Assembly: GCA_015055975.1 (NCBI GenBank)
Contig: SVHF01000005.1
Coordinates: 2,676 to 66,675 of the forward strand
DNA: 64,000 bases
Source: Clostridiales bacterium
GTDB lineage: Bacteria; Bacillota; Clostridia; Christensenellales; UBA3700
Reading direction: 5' to 3'
Program-made: the position numbers and the translations under genes
Shown here: positions 16,674 through 26,691 of the stretch, one piece after another
Position numbering within the stretch: position 1 is the first letter of the stretch
Layout: every line of letters starts with the position of its first letter
Notes under the pieces: generated by a model
The model's database searches: none
What the model was told of the DNA's origin: nothing
What the model saw: only the letters and a program-made list of their open reading frames with translations

Positions 16674-16709
16674 GGGAGCTGCTTTGAGTTAGGGCAGCTC
16701 CCCTATTTT
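16674..16709 (+). terminator. Intrinsic terminator of the giant-protein gene
   Basis: GGGAGCTGC-N11-GCAGCTCCC then CTATTTT. Confidence 0.8.
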
Positions 16710-18299
16710 ATTAGAGATAGAAAGTAAAAAAAATCCTCGACAATATTGAAACATCGAGGTATTCGGCGGAAGGGCGGTGTCCACTTGCGCACTAATGTCT
16801 TTAAAGACATTTCCTCCCGAATCAAGCTTTAGTTTTTCTGTGAATTCTTCTAATTCTTTTTTAGTAAGTTTATTGCCTCTTGGTTTTGTATCATCAGGCC
16901 CATTAAATACAATTACTATTTCGTTGTCATAAACAATAATCACTCTAATAAATGTTCTGATTAATTTTAATCTTGTTTCAGGAGTATCGGTATCAACATC
17001 TAGAATTCGATTGAAAAACTCTAGCACAGATGCTTTAGATATTATTTGTTCAGATGCGCTTTCTTCTTTTGAAATAGCAACATCTATCTTTTCTAATTCT
17101 TCTTCTAGTTCTATTAACTTTGTTTGTGTAGATTTTGTTACAACACCAAGAGATATAGCATTTAACATATTATCTATTGCGTTTTGTGTGGTTTTCTTTC
17201 TTGTGTTTAGCATAGATAATACGATGTTTTCTTTCTTTTGTTTTAAAGAATATTCATATAAGGCATTTGCTAATTTTTCGATTATGTTTTTGTTTTTTAA
17301 TGAATTATACAAAACATCTGCAACTAAATCTTCAAGCTTTTCTTTTGGGATAGATTTGTTATGGCATCCTTTATGATAAGGCGCTGTTGATCTACAAGAA
17401 TAATAATGGTATTTTCTTCCTGTGCAGCTAGTGCTAGTTGCTCCTATTAATGGGGAATTACAATTGCCACAATATACCAATCCATTAAGCAAATAATCAT
17501 AGATGTTGTATCTATCTCCATGAGCTTCTACATTTCTTTCGTGAATAGCATTAACTGTATTCCATAATGAATCATCAATAATCTTTGGATATATATTAGT
17601 GTAAACAGTACCATCATTTTCCCATTTGCCATTGTATTTGCTATTGCATAAGGTTTTATAAATCATCTTCTTATAGAATGGTTTGCCAGTCTTTGTTCTA
17701 TATCCTTGAGCATTTAATTCATTTGCGATATGCTCAGCGGTATATCCATCTTTATACATTTCAAACATCTTCTTAACAACTTGCGCTTCAAGCGGATTAA
17801 TGACGCATTTTTGATTAACAATGTCATAACCATATAATTGCGCTCCGCCAGTAAATAATCCTTTGCTATAAGACAATTTCAAGCCACGTTTAACCTTTTG
17901 AGAAAGCTCAGCAGAGTAGTATTGGGCAAAACCTTCTAAAACAGATTCGAAAATAATAGCTTCTGGAGTATCTGGAATGTTTTCGGTTGCAGATATAACT
18001 TTTATGCCATTTTGTTTTAGAGTATGCTTGTGTACTGCTGAATCATATTTGTCTCTAGAAAATCTATCTAACTTATATACTAAGATATAATCCCATTGTT
18101 TACGAACACATTCTTTCATCATAAGTTGAAAAGAAGGTCTAGCATCATTTGTTCCAGATTTTGCACGATCAATATATTCTTTTACAACAGTGATGTCATT
18201 TCGTTTAGCATATTCATAGCAAACACGTAATTGACCTTCAATAGATTGTTCTGTTTGAGAACTACAAGAGAATCTTGCGTATATAACAGCTTTCTTCAT
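16689..18299 (-). CDS. Large serine recombinase (integrase)
   Basis: AVIYARFS (catalytic Ser), SIEGQ, RPSFQ, LVYKLDRFSR; recombinase domain; Zn ribbon VYCGNC...YYSC...C; coiled coil. Confidence 0.95.
   Translation of the reverse strand: MKKAVIYARFSCSSQTEQSIEGQLRVCYEYAKRNDITVVKEYIDRAKSGTNDARPSFQLMMKECVRKQWDYILVYKLDRFSRDKYDSAVHKHTLKQNGIKVISATENIPDTPEAIIFESVLEGFAQYYSAELSQKVKRGLKLSYSKGLFTGGAQLYGYDIVNQKCVINPLEAQVVKKMFEMYKDGYTAEHIANELNAQGYRTKTGKPFYKKMIYKTLCNSKYNGKWENDGTVYTNIYPKIIDDSLWNTVNAIHERNVEAHGDRYNIYDYLLNGLVYCGNCNSPLIGATSTSCTGRKYHYYSCRSTAPYHKGCHNKSIPKEKLEDLVADVLYNSLKNKNIIEKLANALYEYSLKQKKENIVLSMLNTRKKTTQNAIDNMLNAISLGVVTKSTQTKLIELEEELEKIDVAISKEESASEQIISKASVLEFFNRILDVDTDTPETRLKLIRTFIRVIIVYDNEIVIVFNGPDDTKPRGNKLTKKELEEFTEKLKLDSGGNVFKDISAQVDTALPPNTSMFQYCRGFFLLSISNKIGELP
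16726..16759 (-). terminator. Probable native tRNA-Ser terminator, now separated from the tRNA by the element
   Basis: Minus strand CCTCGA-TGTTTCAATATTG-TCGAGG-A-T8, 5 nt beyond the att core on the host side. Confidence 0.65.
16765..16794. other. Recombinase-proximal att junction
   Basis: Core GGCGGA (16765-16770) shared with the tRNA-Ser 3' end; element-side arm carries GCGCACTA (16787-16794), the inverse of TAGTGCGC at the other junction. Confidence 0.75.
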
Positions 18300-18330
18300 T
18301 TATTATTCATTTCTCCTTAGTATGTAATAT

Positions 18331-18611
18331 TTGTCTTTCGACACCTTCGAAAAATCAAAAAGGAATGAATTGGTCAAGGGGTAAAAGAGACTGAACCTTT
18401 ACCAAAAAGGGAATTTTTGATACCCACTTTTCGAAAGACAATTTGATGCTAGCATGTGAAAGGGTGAGATTGCGTGGTAGTAAATGGGGAGTAGAGGTGA
18501 GTAGAATAGTGGTGGATAGCGATAAGTGCACTAAAAGTATACCTAAATCTCACCTTTACCTCACCTTTGTACCCATTTGTCTCACTTTTACTCCCCCGAA
18601 AACTCACCTTT
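18331..18611. repeat. Structured intergenic region with nested inverted repeats and CTCACCTTT iteron-like repeats
   Basis: TTGTCTTTCGA (18331)/TCGAAAGACAA (18431) with inner arms; CTCAC(C/T)TTT at 18549, 18560, 18581, 18603; inverted GGTGAG copies near 18463 and 18496. Confidence 0.7.
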
Positions 18612-18665
18612 AAAACCTATATATTAAATATGGCAATTGACGTTGCTAAAAATAATAGGAGGTCA

Positions 18666-19433
18666 ATGATGGGTGGTAATGCTATACAAATAGTTGAAAG
18701 GCAAAAGAAAAAAGAAGAAAGACGTAAGAAATGGCTTGAATATATTCTTCAAGAATCTATGCATGCTGCAAAAAGTATTGGGGATGTAGATTTAAGAATA
18801 TTATGTGTAAAGACAATGCTTATTGAAAAAGGTATGAAAGATATAGATGCAGATGTAGCAGCTAAATGTGCTATATATAAGCAAGAAAAAGAAAGAACTA
18901 AAAGACGGTTAACTTTTTGTAAACATAGATATTTAGAAGAGTTCAATTATTATGCAACATTTACTTATGATGAAAACAAGTTAAGTGAGAAAAGATTTAA
19001 AAGAAAGTTATTAAGAAAACTAAAGGGATTTTCAAAGCGAAAAGGATGGAAATATTTAGGAGTATGGGAAAGAACAAAAGAATCTAAAAGATTGTATTTC
19101 TATGGTCTTGTATATATTCCAGATAAAAAGCTTGTTGGAAAATTCATAAAAGTAAACGATTTTAATTTCAAAGCGCATAAGCCTAAAGAGGTCATACAAA
19201 ACACATATTTCAATAAAAAGTTTGGACGATGTACATTTGAAGAAATAAACGCTCAATATTTGCCTAAGACTATGGTAAGAATGGTAAAGCATTTAATGGA
19301 TGCAAAAGATAGCCCTGTATCTTCAAAGAATATCCCAAGCTCAACATTAAATGATCTAAGCTATACAACATTTAAATGTTTAAAAGAAGGGGATGAATAT
19401 ATAGGGCAATTAGAAAAGCGTTTTAAATGCTAA
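18666..19433 (+). CDS. Rolling-circle Rep (HUH)-like protein with degenerate catalytic motifs
   Basis: SD AGGAGG before ATG 18666; YYATFTYD (motif I), KYLGVWER..KRLYFYG (motif II with H to Y), NTYFNKKFGR, MVRMVKHL where YxxKY is expected. Confidence 0.65.
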   Translation: MMGGNAIQIVERQKKKEERRKKWLEYILQESMHAAKSIGDVDLRILCVKTMLIEKGMKDIDADVAAKCAIYKQEKERTKRRLTFCKHRYLEEFNYYATFTYDENKLSEKRFKRKLLRKLKGFSKRKGWKYLGVWERTKESKRLYFYGLVYIPDKKLVGKFIKVNDFNFKAHKPKEVIQNTYFNKKFGRCTFEEINAQYLPKTMVRMVKHLMDAKDSPVSSKNIPSSTLNDLSYTTFKCLKEGDEYIGQLEKRFKC

Positions 19434-19450
19434 ATATTTAAATATATATT

Positions 19451-19969
19451 CTCGTATCAAGACAAGCGACACGCCCATCACCACTTGGAGGTAAAAATGA
19501 AATTTAAAGAGAAACTTATTAAAGCAAAAAAATGGTTAAAAGAACAACAAAAAGAATATGATGAAGGATTACTTCGAAGATACAATCGAGGCTATGTTGA
19601 AAGTAGGAACATGAATTGGTTTGAATTACATAGAGCAAAGAAACTTGCAAGAAGAGAATTCAGACAACAACTAAAAGTCTTATTTAAAGATATGGCAAAA
19701 GATATTAAAGACGTATGGAAACATCGGAAAGGTAAATAACTACTTGTATCAAGACTAGCACGCGCACTAAATGATTTTGCGAAATCCCGACTAAATATTT
19801 AATCGACTCAACCCATACCTAAAACAAAAAGAATAGATATAGAGCGCGAAAGTGGAAAAAAGGCTTTTCTACTCGCGTCTCCTACACCCAGGGCGAGCGA
19901 GAAATTTAGCGGGACGCGTGCTTGTCGACGACGAGCGAAGCGAGGCGCTTGTATCAAGACAAGCACACG
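19451..19969. repeat. Three copies of GTATCAAGAC in hairpins (minus strand TCTTGATAC), candidate double-strand origins
   Basis: Exact 10-mer at 19454, 19746, 19951; third copy in perfect stem GCTTGT-N6-ACAAGC; further hairpins at 19842-19880 and GTGCTTGTC/GACAAGCAC. Confidence 0.75.
19497..19739 (+). CDS. Small basic hypothetical protein (80 aa)
   Basis: SD GGAGGT before ATG 19497; K/R-rich helical sequence lying between repeat copies 1 and 2. Confidence 0.65.
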   Translation: MKFKEKLIKAKKWLKEQQKEYDEGLLRRYNRGYVESRNMNWFELHRAKKLARREFRQQLKVLFKDMAKDIKDVWKHRKGK

Positions 19970-20049
19970 TCTCATTACCATTTGATTTAGATATCGTAAA
20001 AATCGAGACTCATCGATGCTAATTGTTGGTTGGGTTTGTAAACACCATG

Positions 20050-20124
20050 TAAGTGTATAAAATATACAGTTATTGTTGACTTGAAATAAATAGAGTGTTA
20101 ATATAAGTGTATAAAATATACAGT
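20050..20124 (+). promoter_or_regulatory. Promoter flanked by a 21-bp direct repeat operator
   Basis: TAAGTGTATAAAATATACAGT at 20050-20070 and 20104-20124, each with palindrome TGTATA-AAA-TATACA; TTGACT-17-TAATAT between them. Confidence 0.75.
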
Positions 20125-20133
20125 AGGTGTAAT

Positions 20134-21282
20134 ATGCTAAAGAAACTTGTAATTAAAAATGTTAATTCAATTAAAAAATGTGAAATAGATTTTGTGAAAG
20201 GCAATTATAAATTTGCAGAAGAAAATGTGCATAATGGAGTTGTTAATCCTATAGCTATTTATGGTCATAATGGTAGCGGTAAATCTGCTGTTATGAATGC
20301 AATAGGTCATTTTGTTGCATTAATGTCATATCCTGCTGAGTCGTTAGCTCCTTTCACTGTTAATCAAATATTGTTTGATGAATATACCTTAGAAGTGGCA
20401 AAAAATTCAAGCAAGATAATTGCTAGTATTCAATTGCTATTTGATATTGACCACGATGAATATGAGTATTATATCGAGACAAGTGCGCTTGGTTATATTA
20501 CAAATGAATATTTGAAAAAGAATGGCATATGTTATTTTGAAAGAGATAAAGAAAAATTTAGTTATGAAGATAAAGAGTCAAAGATTTCTAATATTTCAAG
20601 ATTAATTCCTCAATTAAGATCATTGGCAAGTTCTGAGATTAATGATGCGACTATACAAGTTGTGTATGCATACATTAGTTCAATTACATTTGTAAACTTA
20701 CCATATATTAATAGAGGCGCTTTTGTAACTTCAAAATTGTTTTTAAATACAAACATTAATGATTTGTTAGTACAAAAATCTAAGACAATTAGAGATATGT
20801 TATCAGAAGACAATTGCTTCCCAAGGTATACAATTGAAAAGAACAATAAAATTTTTCCAAACGGTTTGCAAGCATCGCAATATAGCCTTGTGTTAGAAGA
20901 TAAAGATTTTAAAAAGAAATTGCCTTTAGAGATGATATCTGTCGGCATGAAGAATTTAAGCATATTGCTTTCTTTGTTACTTTCTGTTCCAAAGAATGGT
21001 GTAGTCTTTATTGATGAGGTTGACGCAGCTTTGCATCCTTCAACTTTAAATATGTTCTTAAAAATTATTAGGAAAAACAGTATACAAGTAGTTTTTACAA
21101 TACATAATACAAATGCATTGCAATCTATGAGGCCAGATCAAGTGTATTTTGCGAAATGGGCAAAAGGCTTTTCTAATTATTATAGATTATCAAAGATATA
21201 CCCAAATATTCGAGAAATTAATAATATAGAAAAGATGTACTTATCTTCAACTTTTGATGAGGAAATGAAAGAAGATGAGTAA
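20134..21282 (+). CDS. ABC-type ATPase (AAA_21/AAA_15-like), AbiL/RloA-like component
   Basis: Walker A GHNGSGKS, signature ISVGMK, Walker B FIDEVDAALHP, H-loop FTIHN; start at MLKKLVIKN. Confidence 0.85.
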   Translation: MLKKLVIKNVNSIKKCEIDFVKGNYKFAEENVHNGVVNPIAIYGHNGSGKSAVMNAIGHFVALMSYPAESLAPFTVNQILFDEYTLEVAKNSSKIIASIQLLFDIDHDEYEYYIETSALGYITNEYLKKNGICYFERDKEKFSYEDKESKISNISRLIPQLRSLASSEINDATIQVVYAYISSITFVNLPYINRGAFVTSKLFLNTNINDLLVQKSKTIRDMLSEDNCFPRYTIEKNNKIFPNGLQASQYSLVLEDKDFKKKLPLEMISVGMKNLSILLSLLLSVPKNGVVFIDEVDAALHPSTLNMFLKIIRKNSIQVVFTIHNTNALQSMRPDQVYFAKWAKGFSNYYRLSKIYPNIREINNIEKMYLSSTFDEEMKEDE

Positions 21283-22054
21283 AAACTATTTGCTTATAGT
21301 TGAGGGAAAGAAAACGGAGCCCAATGTATTTGAATGCGCATTTGAGCGGTATGGTTTTCGCGTTGAAAAAGGTAAAGAGCCGTTAAACATAACTGATGTT
21401 GGGCAATTTGAAAAAATTGAGTTTTCTTTAAATCAAAACAATGTGGTAATTATTCAAGGACCTAGAAATAGAATACATGATTTTTTATTACTTATAGAAA
21501 ATGAAGATGTAGTTGTAGAAAAGTTGTTTAAGTATCAATATGCGTTCTTTAATTCAATTTTCTTAATATATGATGTTGATCATAATGATTGTGAAGATAT
21601 TGAAAAAATGTTTAATTATTTTAACGATGAAACGACGTCTGGTTTATTACTATTAAGTTCTCCTTGTATTGAGGTATTAGAAGACTATAATAGAGAAAGG
21701 CGTGAAGAGACTTATCATAAAATAGAAGAATATAAAAAAGATATAAATATATATTGGAATGGGCTTGCGCAAGATAATCTATTAGCTAATTTTGAAAGCA
21801 CGATGTTACATTTTTTAGAAAAGAATCAAAAAGATTTTGCTGAAAACAACATAATGGAACATCCAAGACTTATTATAGATAAAATCAATAAGTTAAATGA
21901 GAGGGTTAATTGTTCGGATAAAGAAAAGTCTTATGTAAGATATAGATATTTTTCTACAGTAGTATATGTCGCAATAGCAAATGCTAATGGATTGACAAAA
22001 GAAATTGATAACTATTCAAAGGCATGTGAGTTCTTTGAGAACAAAAAGCAATAA
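21275..22054 (+). CDS. RloB-like TOPRIM-domain protein
   Basis: LIVEGKKTE, IFLIYDVD (DxD), SSPCIE motif; overlaps the ATPase stop by 8 nt. Confidence 0.7.
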   Translation: MSKNYLLIVEGKKTEPNVFECAFERYGFRVEKGKEPLNITDVGQFEKIEFSLNQNNVVIIQGPRNRIHDFLLLIENEDVVVEKLFKYQYAFFNSIFLIYDVDHNDCEDIEKMFNYFNDETTSGLLLLSSPCIEVLEDYNRERREETYHKIEEYKKDINIYWNGLAQDNLLANFESTMLHFLEKNQKDFAENNIMEHPRLIIDKINKLNERVNCSDKEKSYVRYRYFSTVVYVAIANANGLTKEIDNYSKACEFFENKKQ

Positions 22055-22176
22055 AATTTTTGTTTGTATAATTTAATCTTTTGACTTTTCGGAGAAGGTT
22101 CTTGTTGATTTTTTTTAGATTAATATTGAATTTATATCTGGATCTTTGACATAATAATATTAAAGGAACTAAACAT

Positions 22177-22584
22177 ATGACTATAGGTGAAAAGATTAAA
22201 CAATTGCGTATATCAAAAGGGTTATCTGTTTCTGAATTTGCACAACAAATCGAAGTAACAGAGCGGACTATTTATAGATGGGAAAGCAATAAAAATATCC
22301 CATCTAATTCATATTTAGCGAAAATAGCAATTTCCTGCGATGTCAAGATAGATTATTTCAAAAGTGAAAAAGCAAAATTGTCTATCGTCAAGCTATTATC
22401 TATAATCTCAATAGTTATTCTTTCTTTATTAACATTAATATCGTTAATAGGGTTTATAGCATATTTGGCCACAGGGCAAAGAGTTTTATTTGGTCTATCT
22501 TTTGATTTTATTATAGCAATGCTAATATTTTCTTTTAGCCTTTTATCTTTTGCAATAGTGTTTTTGTCTTTAAATAAATACTAA
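22177..22584 (+). CDS. XRE-family HTH regulator with two C-terminal TM helices
   Basis: IGEKIKQLRISKGLS..EFAQQIEVTERTIYRWESNKNIP followed by two hydrophobic segments. Confidence 0.88.
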   Translation: MTIGEKIKQLRISKGLSVSEFAQQIEVTERTIYRWESNKNIPSNSYLAKIAISCDVKIDYFKSEKAKLSIVKLLSIISIVILSLLTLISLIGFIAYLATGQRVLFGLSFDFIIAMLIFSFSLLSFAIVFLSLNKY

Positions 22585-22596
22585 TTGTCTTAAAAA

Positions 22597-22644
22597 GTCA
22601 TGAAATGTCACGAAATGTCAGTAGATAAATTATATATAATGTCA
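22597..22644 (+). promoter_or_regulatory. Phased (T)GTCA repeats upstream of the cargo operon
   Basis: GTCA at 22597, 22607, 22617 (10-bp period, GAAATGTCA twice) and AATGTCA at 22638. Confidence 0.5.
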
Positions 22645-22672
22645 TAATCTTTTAGTAGGAGGTTATGATATT

Positions 22673-23398
22673 ATGAAAAATAAATTATTTATTATTTTGA
22701 TGCTTATTTTGACGATTTGTGTTTCAACAGCATATGTAACATCAATTGCTTATGCGGAAAGCACAAATAGTGAAGAGGCTTTTAGTAGTGACCCAACAAT
22801 AGTACATCTTTCAGATGATTATCAAGGATGGAATAATTCGTCGCGTTGGTATTCTCAGCCATTATGGTATTGCGATAATAATTCATATTCGCCAACATCA
22901 CATGATTACAAATATTGCGAATATAATACTTCTGTAATAAGCAATTTGCCGTACTATAAAGTAATGGCAACTGATAGTTATGAAACTATAGAATTGTCGC
23001 AAGTTGAGACTCTTTCGTCTCCGGATAATAGTGAAACAAACTCTGGTGTATTTGTTACATTCCAAAGCAATAACATTTCATATGCTTCGGGAATATATTT
23101 GAATGGAGATGAATACATATTAGGAGCATTAACTTCAGAATTGCAAATATTCGGCTCTACGACAAAGGTTGGAGCTGGAAAAGTGTTATATAGACAAGGG
23201 GCTTTAGTGAACGGCGGTACTTGGGGAGGTTGGTCATACGCTGATTTAGGGACTAATACTTCAATTTATTTTCCAGCTAATGTTGCTGTTCAATTGGCTG
23301 TTATTTATGAGGTTAAAGAAGAAAAATTACATTGGTATCAAAGTCATAAATATTATAGATGCTTGGGATACTATAGATTTAACACGGGAGTTGTTTAA
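22673..23398 (+). CDS. Secreted hypothetical protein (Tyr/Trp/Ser rich)
   Basis: SD AGGAGG, signal peptide ending AYA-E, no recognised domain. Confidence 0.75.
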   Translation: MKNKLFIILMLILTICVSTAYVTSIAYAESTNSEEAFSSDPTIVHLSDDYQGWNNSSRWYSQPLWYCDNNSYSPTSHDYKYCEYNTSVISNLPYYKVMATDSYETIELSQVETLSSPDNSETNSGVFVTFQSNNISYASGIYLNGDEYILGALTSELQIFGSTTKVGAGKVLYRQGALVNGGTWGGWSYADLGTNTSIYFPANVAVQLAVIYEVKEEKLHWYQSHKYYRCLGYYRFNTGVV

Positions 23399-24312
23399 TG
23401 TTAGAATTGATAAAACAAAACAAGAATAAACTTACTTGCATCCTAATAGCATTTGTCACAATTATAGCAATTGTTCTTTTGTTATTAGGCAGTCAAACTT
23501 ATACAACGAATTCAGATGATGATTCATCTATTGATTCATATAAAGTCCTATATGAAGAAGCGAAAATGAATTATGAGTGCAAAATTGGAATAAGAGAGTG
23601 GCCTGCCGGTGTTATGCAAGATCCAAAAATGACAGCTAAAGATTATGAAGCGAAAATGAATTATTATGAAGAATTAATGGATAATAATATTTCTAAATCA
23701 GATTATTTTAATATAGATAATCCTCTGCAAAATAAAGAAACAATGAGGCATGCAACAATAGGATATATGATGTTATATATCATGAGCTTTTTTGTTATAA
23801 TTGCAGCGCTTAGCATTCCTTATGTTTTTGCTAATGACGATAAGCATAGCAAATTAGTAGCATTAGGAGCTTCATATTGTAGTGTATTTGTTTTGAATTT
23901 AATAGTGTTCATCTTTGGTATTCCATTTGTGTTAAATAATATGTCAGCGCCAGTAATTCAGCAGTTTGGAATAAATACAATTACAACAACGATATCTATA
24001 TATTATTTTGTTAGAGCATTGGGATTGTTGTGTATATCTCTCTTAATGTGCACAATAGGAAGTATTATTGCGAATGCAAGAAAGATGAGCTTCGCTAAAT
24101 ATTTATCTGTATTTATGACATATTTCATTTTCTGTATTCCATTTGTTTTAGAGTTGGGATTAAAGTCTAACAATTATGCAATTATTCCTATTACGCATAT
24201 ACAATTTGCAAACAATATAATAAATAATCCGATTTATTGGATTGGCGTTATTATATGCATTATGTTGGGAATATGTTATTATGCATGTTTGAGGTTTAGA
24301 AAGCAATTATAA
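23398..24312 (+). CDS. Multi-pass membrane protein, ABC-2 permease-like topology
   Basis: TM1, ~85-aa extracellular loop, five further TM; TAATG-coupled to the upstream gene. Confidence 0.65.
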   Translation: MLELIKQNKNKLTCILIAFVTIIAIVLLLLGSQTYTTNSDDDSSIDSYKVLYEEAKMNYECKIGIREWPAGVMQDPKMTAKDYEAKMNYYEELMDNNISKSDYFNIDNPLQNKETMRHATIGYMMLYIMSFFVIIAALSIPYVFANDDKHSKLVALGASYCSVFVLNLIVFIFGIPFVLNNMSAPVIQQFGINTITTTISIYYFVRALGLLCISLLMCTIGSIIANARKMSFAKYLSVFMTYFIFCIPFVLELGLKSNNYAIIPITHIQFANNIINNPIYWIGVIICIMLGICYYACLRFRKQL

Positions 24313-24390
24313 ATATGTTTAGCTATATTAAATCGGAGGTGGTGCTAAAAATAATAAGAATCAACAACATAATAGATTAGGAGGTTATTT

Positions 24391-25758
24391 ATGAATAAAA
24401 GTAGACAAAAAATCAAATTAGTTGCAATCACTAGCATTTTGCTCTTAGCATTAATCGCAGTAGCAGGAGCGACTTTAATATTAGGCATAACAATGCAAAA
24501 GGCTCAGCATAACATAGAATCGTTTAATTCGGACCCAATTGCTTCATATGAGAAAACATACTGTGAAGAGTTAATGTCATATAAATTGGATCAAAATTAT
24601 ATCTGTACTTTAACAAAAGAAGTATATGATTTTTCTGGCAATGCAAATTATATGCTTTGTTATGATGAAAATTTAAATTGGTATGCGATAATAAATAGAA
24701 CAAGCGGTGATGTTTTAGAACGAAAAGAATCAAAATCCCCATATAATGATTATTTGGAATACAAGTGTTTCTATTTGGGATATGGTAATTATTACTTTTT
24801 AGAAGGCAATAGGATTGTTTCTATTATGGATACAACTACTATATTTGAAGCAGATGATATCCCACAAGAGCTTATTGAAGGATCTATAAATCTAAACAAC
24901 AAAGCGATCACCGATGGAACTTTTAAATCTAGGGAAGAGATAGAAGAATTTGTAAAAGAGCAAGAAAAATCTATTGTTTCGTTATGTGGAGCATCAAATA
25001 GAAATAATACACATTATTGTGACAATCTATTGTATTTTTTAGAAATGTGCAACGCTTTAGTGCCAAAACGATTTGTAATCTCGACTGAACCATATTATGT
25101 TACGATTGGCTGTGGGACTTTTACAAGATATAATGGGGCTCAATATGATGATATTTTGTTTGCAAAAAATACAACAGGAACATGTGGAATAGTATCTTCT
25201 GCAATGCTATTACAGTATTATGAAAGAAATGGGATATTAAACGTTATTCCAAATAGTATATATAACAATAGTATAATTAGTTTTCCTTCTGGTTCAACAG
25301 TGTCAAGTGTTGGCTTAGAGTATACCGTTGCCCAAAAAGTTCATAATGCAATAAATGCTCATCATAGTGAGATTTTGGGAGGTTCTACTTATGTATCGGC
25401 AAAAGATGCAATAAATGGGTATTTCTCAACATACGGGATAACTGGAGTTAGTGCATCGTCAAACGTTTTAGATGCTGGCATGAAGTCCACAATTAACAAT
25501 GGAGATCCAGTAGTAGTATTTATAAGTGGAGGAACAGGATATAGCGCTTATATTGATTCTAGTAGCAATAATTATTATTCGGAGTATATTAGCTCACATG
25601 CAATGTTAGCATTTGGGTACACAACTGGGTTATTCGGACTGGTTGATGAGTATATTTGCAATAAAGGATGGCCAGAAGCGTATAATAATTACTATACATA
25701 TGGCGTAACATACATTTCGCACATTTCTATCGTGGGTAATGTAAAATTATTATATTAA
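24391..25758 (+). CDS. Secreted or membrane-anchored papain-fold cysteine peptidase (C10/C39-like)
   Basis: N-terminal TM, prodomain-like region, N..GTCGIVSSAMLLQY (Cys), SHAMLAFGY (His), ICNKGW (as in streptopain-like NxGW). Confidence 0.7.
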   Translation: MNKSRQKIKLVAITSILLLALIAVAGATLILGITMQKAQHNIESFNSDPIASYEKTYCEELMSYKLDQNYICTLTKEVYDFSGNANYMLCYDENLNWYAIINRTSGDVLERKESKSPYNDYLEYKCFYLGYGNYYFLEGNRIVSIMDTTTIFEADDIPQELIEGSINLNNKAITDGTFKSREEIEEFVKEQEKSIVSLCGASNRNNTHYCDNLLYFLEMCNALVPKRFVISTEPYYVTIGCGTFTRYNGAQYDDILFAKNTTGTCGIVSSAMLLQYYERNGILNVIPNSIYNNSIISFPSGSTVSSVGLEYTVAQKVHNAINAHHSEILGGSTYVSAKDAINGYFSTYGITGVSASSNVLDAGMKSTINNGDPVVVFISGGTGYSAYIDSSSNNYYSEYISSHAMLAFGYTTGLFGLVDEYICNKGWPEAYNNYYTYGVTYISHISIVGNVKLLY

Positions 25759-25768
25759 GGAGAACGCT

Positions 25769-26248
25769 ATGAGGAAGCATAAATATATAATAATTGCAGT
25801 CGTTGCCATTGTTGTTTTGATTGTTATTGCGTTTCTTGTTAATTTGTGTTTATTTAATGCGCTTAAAAACAATAAAGTAAACATCCTTGAACAGCATGGT
25901 GTGAAAACTACAGAAATCCTAAAACTTGAAAAATTAGAGCATTCGCCGGAGCAGCAGTATTTGAAATATACAACATTTTGCTCTAAAACAAAATTTATGT
26001 ATGGAATATATTCGTTGGGATATAAGGTACATTGTTTATATGATGATGGTAACAAACAGATTGAATATGACCTATATGAAGTAGATTGGGCTAGAACGTA
26101 TGCAGAAGATGAATCATTTTATATTTTTTCGGCAGAAACCTTGTTTGAAACAAAGCATATTTTAGTATTAGATAAAAGCGACAAGGATAATTTGGAACTA
26201 GTTTGGCGAGATTTGGGGTTGTTAATTGATTATCAATTTGCCCTATAG
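25769..26248 (+). CDS. Single-pass membrane hypothetical protein
   Basis: SD AAGGAG, N-terminal TM, 10 nt after the peptidase stop. Confidence 0.7.
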   Translation: MRKHKYIIIAVVAIVVLIVIAFLVNLCLFNALKNNKVNILEQHGVKTTEILKLEKLEHSPEQQYLKYTTFCSKTKFMYGIYSLGYKVHCLYDDGNKQIEYDLYEVDWARTYAEDESFYIFSAETLFETKHILVLDKSDKDNLELVWRDLGLLIDYQFAL

Positions 26249-26349
26249 AGCAGTAGTAGATTGTCAAATCAAGTGCAATCTTGGTTATGTATAAGTCACT
26301 AAAGAAAAATATAATTGATTTGATATATCAAAGACAATAGAGCACTAAA

Positions 26350-26389
26350 GATAGAGCCAACTCAGTTTAAATATTGAACTGGCTCTATC
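26350..26389 (+). terminator. Hairpin after the cargo operon
   Basis: GATAGAGCCA (26350) / TGGCTCTATC (26380); weak T tail. Confidence 0.45.
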
Positions 26390-26502
26390 AATTTACGCGA
26401 CTCTAGCTAGTCCACCTCTATATTTTATTCTTTTGATGAAATCTTTTTGTATTTTAATGAATTAAAAGAAGTCGAAAATTAGTTTATATTATGCAATTAG
26501 TT

Positions 26503-26531
26503 AAAAAGAAAATAGAGTACAAAGTACTCTA
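26503..26531 (-). terminator. Element-borne terminator (serves tRNA-Ser when integrated, recombinase when excised)
   Basis: Minus strand TAGAGTAC-TTT-GTACTCTA-TTTTCTTTTT. Confidence 0.7.
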
Positions 26532-26580
26532 CTTTTCAAAGATTAGTCTCAAAGCAAAACTGTTTTTATATACTAACCAA

Positions 26581-26607
26581 TAGTGCGCTTGAGACCCTTG
26601 TGGCGGA
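26581..26607. other. tRNA-proximal att junction
   Basis: TAGTGCGC (26581-26588) and core GGCGGA (26602-26607) overlapping the tRNA acceptor end. Confidence 0.75.
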
Positions 26608-26691
26608 GAGTGCGAGATTTGAACTCGCGCTACGGTTTCCCGTACTACACCCTTAGCAGGGGCGCCCCTTCGGCCTCTTGGGTAACTCTCC
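26601..26691 (-). tRNA. tRNA-Ser(GCT)
   Basis: GGAGAGT...ACTCTCC-G-CCA, anticodon loop CT-GCT-AA, long variable arm, GTTCAAATC T-arm. Confidence 0.97.

Follow-up and report, generated by a model that had tools for sequence, protein, structure and literature searches.

Serine integrases have been described as inserting in protein-coding genes and were not known at tRNA genes (PMC4383910, PMC5704250), serine-recombinase mobilizable elements have been described as inserting within genes (PMC5704250), and the word tRNA is absent from a large recombinase survey (PMC10083194). The filamentous phages phiRSM of Ralstonia, as far as they are portrayed in PMC4471427, integrate at tRNA-Ser by means of a small serine recombinase (Askora et al. 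2011). Here, a stretch of 64,000 nucleotides from a Clostridiales bacterium (the window) was analyzed, and it was concluded, with a probability of roughly 0.85, that positions 16765-26601 were a 9.84-kb integrative element put at the 3' tip of a tRNA-Ser(GCT) gene by its own large serine recombinase. The conclusion was carried by the domains of the recombinase, the boundaries of the element, the empty sites, the passage of the recombinase open reading frame (ORF) through the recombination core and a breakpoint shared across the clade of related enzymes. The element was precisely bounded, its enzyme was intact and its attachment (att) sites were readable. Elements of this general kind are already known; the tRNA-tip target and the ORF-through-core layout set this one apart.

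The recombinase showed the same three-domain architecture as the phage-type large serine integrases (Listeria A118/LI, TP901-1, Bxb1, phiC31), and it had in common with them a short core, an attP of about 50 bp with inverted arms and no target duplication beyond the core. Their targets lie inside protein-coding genes, whereas the target in the window was a tRNA 3' tip; unlike theirs, the attP core of the window was located in the integrase ORF, integration replaced the last 23-24 residues and the terminator, and the cargo was a small non-phage island. In mycobacteriophages such as BPs, attP is located in the repressor gene, a tyrosine integrase is used, and integration truncates the gene. The window resembled BPs in having attP within a coding region, so that integration altered the C-terminus of an element-coded protein; however, the gene altered here was that of the serine integrase itself, and any regulatory effect would be hypothetical.

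As in phiRSM, a small element with a Rep gene was inserted by a serine recombinase where a tRNA-Ser gene ends (3'), and relatives of the window enzyme served inovirus-like prophages. The phiRSM Int, as far as PMC4471427 describes it, is a small enzyme of the resolvase/invertase type; its core has 13 bp and its attP is intergenic. The window enzyme, in contrast, was a large serine recombinase of 536 aa whose core of 6-7 bp fell within the ORF of the enzyme; the hosts, Ralstonia and Clostridia, are unrelated. The tyrosine-integrase islands of the Islander type (PMC4383910) were also similar in that they are inserted at the 3' end of a tRNA gene whose function is preserved, and in that one site is reused repeatedly by different elements. 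The enzyme family and the mechanism differed. The only recombinase of the window element belonged to the serine family, only 6-7 bp were shared, and the far end repeated only GGCGGA with no displaced tRNA fragment.

The window belonged to contig C37 of a metagenome-assembled genome (1.59 Mb, 42 contigs, GC content about 32%). Its best-matching sequencing runs were faeces metagenomes, and the related runs were gut metagenomes, including bovine, sheep and goat ones; the source sample was examined as assembled contigs at a depth of about 850x. The att sites, the recombinase gene, the terminators and the tRNA gene were located as follows.

16674-16702, plus strand: terminator of the giant-protein gene, 13-bp stem, -22.1 kcal/mol, host DNA.
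16689-18299, minus strand: gene of the large serine recombinase, which in the integrated state has 536 aa, the first 512 coded by the element and the last 24 by the host.
16726-16764, minus strand: B arm of attL, that is the old tRNA-Ser trailer and terminator, as judged from its fold and from the empty-site contigs of runs X3 and X13.
16765-16770, no strand: left copy of the GGCGGA core (attL); contigs of related elements in runs X4, X7 and X21 start or break right at 16765.
16771-16794, no strand: P' arm of attP, within the 3' coding region of the integrase, including GCGCACTA at 16787-16794.
26509-26535, minus strand: new terminator, now ending the tRNA-Ser transcript, as judged from its fold; the same hairpin is found 3' of the integrase gene of homologue L036.
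26565-26601, no strand: P arm of attP, including TAGTGCGC at 26581-26588 and coding the attP-state tail QGSQAHYWLVYK...
26601-26691, minus strand: tRNA-Ser(GCT), intact, with CCA encoded at 26603-26601; B' arm of attB.
26602-26607, no strand: right copy of the GGCGGA core (attR), inside the acceptor end of the tRNA.

The recombinase contained a Resolvase domain (PF00239, E 9e-28), a Recombinase domain (PF07508, E 6e-18) and a zinc ribbon (Zn_ribbon_recom, PF13408, E 6e-14). Its N-terminal part matched the TP901-1 catalytic domain (3bvp), and residues 147-404 matched the C-terminal-domain structures of the A118 integrase (4kis, 6dnw). The residues R9, S11, Q15, D78, R79 and R82, which were invariant across 15 homologues, were present in the window enzyme. 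Hence, both the catalytic domain with its serine and the Arg/Gln/Asp residues and the C-terminal recombinase and zinc-ribbon domains of a large serine recombinase were found. A preliminary description of this DNA had proposed an intact and possibly active pair of integrase and att sites; the enzyme and its catalytic residues were indeed intact, and activity is suggested by the polymorphism of empty and occupied sites together with the occurrence of the same ends in other hosts. Empty and occupied sites and a P/P' junction in run X4 are indirect signs of attP x attB recombination. The element may be active at present and may move from cell to cell.

The empty site was found in two other gut metagenomes when public contigs were aligned with the region. 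The contig from run X3 read ...CATCGAGGTATT joined to TGGCGGAGAGTGCGAGA, and the 526-bp contig from run X13, a sheep gut metagenome, contained the 3' end of the giant-protein gene and both terminators, followed by ...CATCGAGGTATA joined to TGGCGGAGAGT (the junction was also read as ...GGTATA joined to TGGCGGAGAGT). In both contigs the stretch corresponding to 16726-16764 was directly joined to TGGCGGAGAG. The junction was located exactly at the predicted core, and therefore the insertion comprised 16765-26601 exactly, plus or minus the core. The predicted arrangement of the empty locus was also seen in these two runs, with the giant-protein gene (1951 aa) convergent with tRNA-Ser. In the window, the terminator of the giant-protein gene was back-to-back with the old tRNA terminator, and a tRNA-Glu gene lay upstream of tRNA-Ser(GCT). 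The 3' end of the giant-protein gene gave no result as a probe for the empty locus in GTDB relatives, the region being a repeated domain and the species too distant.

It had been proposed earlier that the tRNA would end in CC-G at the empty site and in CCA only after integration. This was contradicted by both natural empty sites, which read TGGCGGA and so encoded CCA, and by the tRNA-Ser genes of five relatives from the genus, which also encoded CCA (TGG) when read across the 3' end. The CC-G reading arose only from the C at 16764 in the attL of the window. The element did not repair a CC-G tRNA, and the tRNA sequence was unchanged by integration.

When the ends of the element were joined, the reconstructed attP was 51 bp long and read TAGTGCGC-13-GGCGGA-16-GCGCACTA, with TAGTGCGC placed 13 nt ahead of the right core and GCGCACTA 16 nt past the left core as 8-bp inverted arms. 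Both this layout and the statement that GGCGGA was the only duplication held when the arms and core copies were located. For comparison, 5000 random pairs of 40-mers from the same genome were joined, and a perfect near-symmetric inverted repeat of at least 8 bp across the joint was recorded in 32 of them (0.64%, P of about 0.006). The longest inverted repeat was at most 4 bp in the reconstructed attB, attL and attR junctions, and attP and attB had 6-7 bp in common. The short att sites of large serine recombinases were thus recovered here, with an attP of about 50 bp, inverted half-sites and few bp in common with attB. No spare inverted attP was found beside the integrase gene, no long inverted repeat involved the att arms, and the P' word was unique in the window. 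As attL and attR had no dinucleotide in common on either side of the core, the crossover must have been within GGCGGA, and the crossover dinucleotide would be GG at core positions 4-5.

The core fell in the recombinase codons L510-P511-P512 (CTT CCG CCN). Once integrated, the recombinase (536 aa) ended ...PP-NTSMFQYCRGFFLLSISNKIGELP, the tail being coded by host DNA; with the ends joined, the ORF (535 aa) crossed the core in the same way and ended ...PP-QGSQAHYWLVYKNSFALRLIFEK. The layout predicted for attP, namely the integrase 3' end, CCGCCA, the P arm and the terminator, was contiguous in L036 (a homologue 58% identical), where the same terminator hairpin was present. The integrase, CCGCCA and the P arm were also contiguous in L035, a homologue 48% identical from G005, a genome of the same genus.

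The old tRNA terminator was a hairpin, CCUCGAUG...UGUCGAGG, followed by U8 (-13.2 kcal/mol), and it was now found downstream of the integrase core with the integrase ORF running through it. The terminator at 26509-26535 was present as had been described; its supposed nature as a replacement had to be revised, since the contiguity in L036 showed that it was the own terminator of the integrase in the attP state. The attP-state stop codon of the integrase (26529-26531) was located in the 5' stem of this terminator. Hence, integration exchanged terminators between the integrase gene and the tRNA. It was also observed that the first in-frame stop of the recombinase in the integrated state (16689-16691) lay beyond the U-tract of the old terminator (16726-16733), and therefore transcripts terminated at that U-tract would have no stop codon.

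Further, the breakpoint was compared among 118 full-length recombinase homologues that were 42-58% identical to the window enzyme; homologues were present in 102 of 401 genomes of the host's order. A sequence ...S.K..[S/L]PP followed by unrelated tails was shared by 82-91 of the 118, and in 36 pairs of homologues the identity was 80% or more up to PP but no higher than 25% beyond it. Three pairs of different enzymes had the same tail. The DNA at the PP codons read (C)TCCGCCA, and in one subgroup CTCTCCGCCA, which equaled the tRNA-Ser end over 10 nt. As in the window, CCGCCA was frequently followed by a plain terminator hairpin in integrated relatives. A tRNA-Ser gene (anticodon TGA, CGA, GCT or GGA) was found at the recombinase 3' end in 10 of the 29 best loci of the host's order; tRNA-Arg, tRNA-Lys or tRNA-Ala was found at other loci among these 29. 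The preliminary description had regarded integration at tRNA genes as more usual for tyrosine integrases. Such a target is unusual for the serine class, but tRNA-Ser was the norm for this clade, and the clade as a whole targeted tRNA-Ser ends. A search of the genome contig collection for relative loci with the recombinase protein gave no confirmed relative.

Some loci of related enzymes were arranged in other ways. In a sister clade (L059, L062, L064, L071, L073) the recombinase ORF entered the tRNA-Ser gene itself on the antisense strand, ...LGGDGEIRTHEP being one of the resulting tails, and the core was crossed in the opposite orientation. At L047 (G139:C10), CCGCCA, a terminator hairpin and then TGGCGGAAGCGGAGGG... 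were found just downstream of the recombinase, which suggests that a second recombinase 3' end faced the first; two elements may have been inserted there tail to tail.

The ends of the element were also found in other settings. In run X21, a left end of the window type (3 mismatches in 236 nt, 98.7% identity) was placed beside a different flank, and in runs X21 and X22 a right end of the window type was joined to a tRNA-Ser of the CGA type. The sister element of G005 was located at a locus syntenic with contig C27 of the window's own genome, which is a tRNA-Ser(CGA) locus. In runs X4 and X8, a 5944-bp contig matching window 26564-26606 contained window-like cargo and the right end, followed by ...TGGCGG and then GCCATGAGGGAAACGAAC. 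The latter flank did not look like a tRNA gene; it may represent a secondary site of integration with only GGCGG in common.

The remaining part of the element was occupied by the following genes.

18300-19985, plus strand: Rep module, with a divergent intergenic region, a 288-aa Rep-like gene (18567-19433) and an 84-aa ORF with repeats.
20107-22054, plus strand: AbiL-like defence pair, with an AbiLi/AAA_21 ATPase (20107-21282) and an RloB-like/PDC-M12B partner (21275-22054).
22177-26248, plus strand: other cargo, with an HTH_3 regulator with transmembrane segments, a 241-aa predicted secreted protein, a 304-aa multi-pass membrane protein, a 455-aa Peptidase_C39_2-like protein and a 159-aa single-pass protein.

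The Rep-like protein gave a weak match to REP_ORF2-G2P (PF23343) of 22.4 bits, below the cutoff of 27.8, and had RLYFYG where the HUH motif would be; the module (18314-19985) was still 93-98% protein-identical in the sister elements of G005 and L036, whose integrases were only 48% and 58% identical to that of the window. A nearly identical Rep module beside divergent integrases indicated that the family was modular, and from these comparisons it may be described as a Rep-like module with a swappable recombinase module and variable cargo. The ATPase was assigned to the AbiLi type by the PADLOC AbiLi model (E 2.7e-41) and AAA_21 (E 1.7e-19). Its partner scored 22 bits against Pfam RloB (cutoff 31.5) and was assigned to the PADLOC candidate family PDC-M12B (E 1e-12), not to AbiLii. 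The pair was duplicated in the own genome with 98.8% identity (C8:79-2145 against window 20047-22113), and the source-sample depth was doubled over it. The C8 copy adjoined a different large serine recombinase, 42% identical to that of the window; a third large serine recombinase of the genome was found at the end of contig C33.

Several observations weighed against an element placed by its own recombinase and still mobile. No circular or excised product of this copy was seen, the contigs of the source sample showing the occupied state only. Neither a relaxase nor packaging genes were recognized in the element, and the same was true of a recombination directionality factor, which large serine recombinases require for excision. 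The exact attP 24-mer, the inverted-repeat pattern and a degenerate P-arm module had no match in the viral or metagenome contig collections; in the genome contig collection, the same patterns matched only in a contig of G005. In three relatives of the PP clade, the 15-20 kb searched on the side of the cargo contained no tRNA. A contig from run X4 read 26502-26607 and then directly AGGGCGGTGTCCACTTGCGCACT, which is a P/P' junction (right end, GGCGGA, left end). It was rejected as proof of a circle because past the terminator it matched neither the window cargo nor the other element contig of X4, and also because chromosomal P/P' junctions exist in G005; it could be a junction of a tandem array or a scar. 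Finally, attL position -1 was C (16764) in the window and T in the natural empty sites. A crossover to the left of the core was ruled out as the cause of this difference, attL and attR having no common dinucleotide there, and with the crossover confined to GGCGGA the C was a strain difference or a later mutation. An old recombinase insertion, by now a fixed and immobile island whose att sites and ORF merely look intact, would agree with the occupied state at about 850x, with the changed position -1, with a Rep-like gene devoid of the HUH histidines and with the missing directionality factor. It was considered possible, though unlikely, since both empty and occupied states occurred among close strains, nearly identical ends (98.7%) were present in other hosts and at a tRNA-Ser(CGA) site, and the ORF and the catalytic residues were intact.

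The gene content bears on another explanation, in which the element is a degenerate inovirus-like prophage or satellite that exits by the morphogenesis genes of a helper phage rather than a plasmid-like or mobilizable island. Elements with related enzymes carried a Rep of the G2P type and a LexA-like repressor, and are probably filamentous prophages. Two elements with clade recombinases (L098, L100) had Rep proteins homologous to that of the window, and L100 also carried a LexA-like repressor and a Zot-like protein. The Rep-like gene of the window gave its weak REP_ORF2-G2P match, and phiRSM, as it is portrayed in PMC4471427, is a precedent of a filamentous phage with a serine recombinase at tRNA-Ser. 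However, no Zot-like ATPase and no coat-like or structural phage genes were detected in the window element, its Rep match fell under the Pfam cutoff and the catalytic motif was altered. A prophage proper was ruled out by the lack of structural genes, the set of an inovirus prophage (Zot/pI ATPase, coat proteins, rolling-circle Rep) not being found in the element, and a degenerate or satellite form was judged improbable. Insertion by some other route, that is by homologous recombination between P-arm-like scars or by transposition, with GGCGGA being incidental, could draw on the element-free P-arm-like DNA beside tRNA-Ser(CGA) on C27. It was regarded as extremely improbable, as the empty tRNA-Ser(GCT) sites had no P-arm-like DNA, the junction coincided exactly with the breakpoint that the clade shares in its recombinase ORFs, and neither a transposase nor terminal inverted repeats were found in the element.

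Integration by the element's own recombinase was modeled as follows. The attP core CCGCC(A) represents the last bases of the tRNA and coincides with codons P511-P512 of the recombinase ORF. In a circular element this ORF would run on into the P arm (tail QGSQAHYWLVYKNSFALRLIFEK) and stop at its own terminator. A 2-bp staggered exchange within GGCGGA would then carry the tail and the terminator to the tRNA side, where they would become the new trailer and terminator of the tRNA, while the integrated recombinase gene would enter the former tRNA terminator and gain an unrelated 24-residue tail.

Among the gut Clostridia of the host's order, tRNA-Ser tips are the docking sites of an entire clade of large serine recombinases, which carry defence islands and, in some members, serve inovirus-like prophages. 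The tRNA-Ser target, of which a genome has several, is conserved and gene-neutral, and every member of the clade is an enzyme with a readable attP and attB, which makes the clade a raw material for genome-engineering integrases. Owing to the ORF-through-core layout, the integration state and the previous host can be read from the protein tail alone.

The layout raises the question whether the swap of tail and terminator regulates the recombinase. It was proposed, as a rather doubtful extension of the model, that placing attP in the integrase acts as a built-in state switch, perhaps linked to an enzyme that is unusually tolerant of the half of the target outside the tRNA. Integration would cost the integrase its conserved tail and its terminator, and stop-less transcripts would leave the enzyme poorly made or tagged for degradation until excision restored the gene. 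With the supposed tolerance, the enzyme may take a resident attR (P arm, core and tRNA) as a target, resulting in tandem stacking and P-arm scars. Serine integrases canonically pair only attP with attB, and attR as a target is unexpected; tandem stacking at a resident attR would thus be unorthodox for this class of enzymes.

If elements were stacked in this way and the older one then decayed, the following flanks would nevertheless be explained. At C27:23788-23824 of the own genome, a P-arm copy of 35-37 nt (against window 26564-26601) was found directly downstream of tRNA-Ser(CGA) with no element; C27:23788-23822 was 94% identical to the P arm. It may be a solo attR-like scar or an ancestral flank that gave rise to the P arm. 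In G005, P-arm-like sequence of the C27 type was present on the integrase side of the element. In G002, a nearly identical repeat, about 104 nt long (148 nt for the two tRNA-Ser copies), followed tRNA-Ser(GCT), tRNA-Ser(CGA) and a tmRNA-like gene called by eye. Its copies at C25:1-147, C27:1-148 and C45:2085-2187 of that genome (L088, L017, L096) were 98-100% identical, two contigs broke there, and the same repeat was the flank of the attL of run X21, next to the integrase. In elements of the P0051 type, a conserved hairpin module followed CCGCCA and adjoined conserved host genes. It was also observed that the P0051 contigs (L074-L077) had one identical recombinase at one host site, when the neighboring cargo varied by sample: WYL, methylase, HATPase and Mrr-helicase genes were found in one sample, and WYL, PLD-helicase, SMC-like and DndB genes in the others. 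This looks like an exchange of defence cassettes behind a constant integrase.

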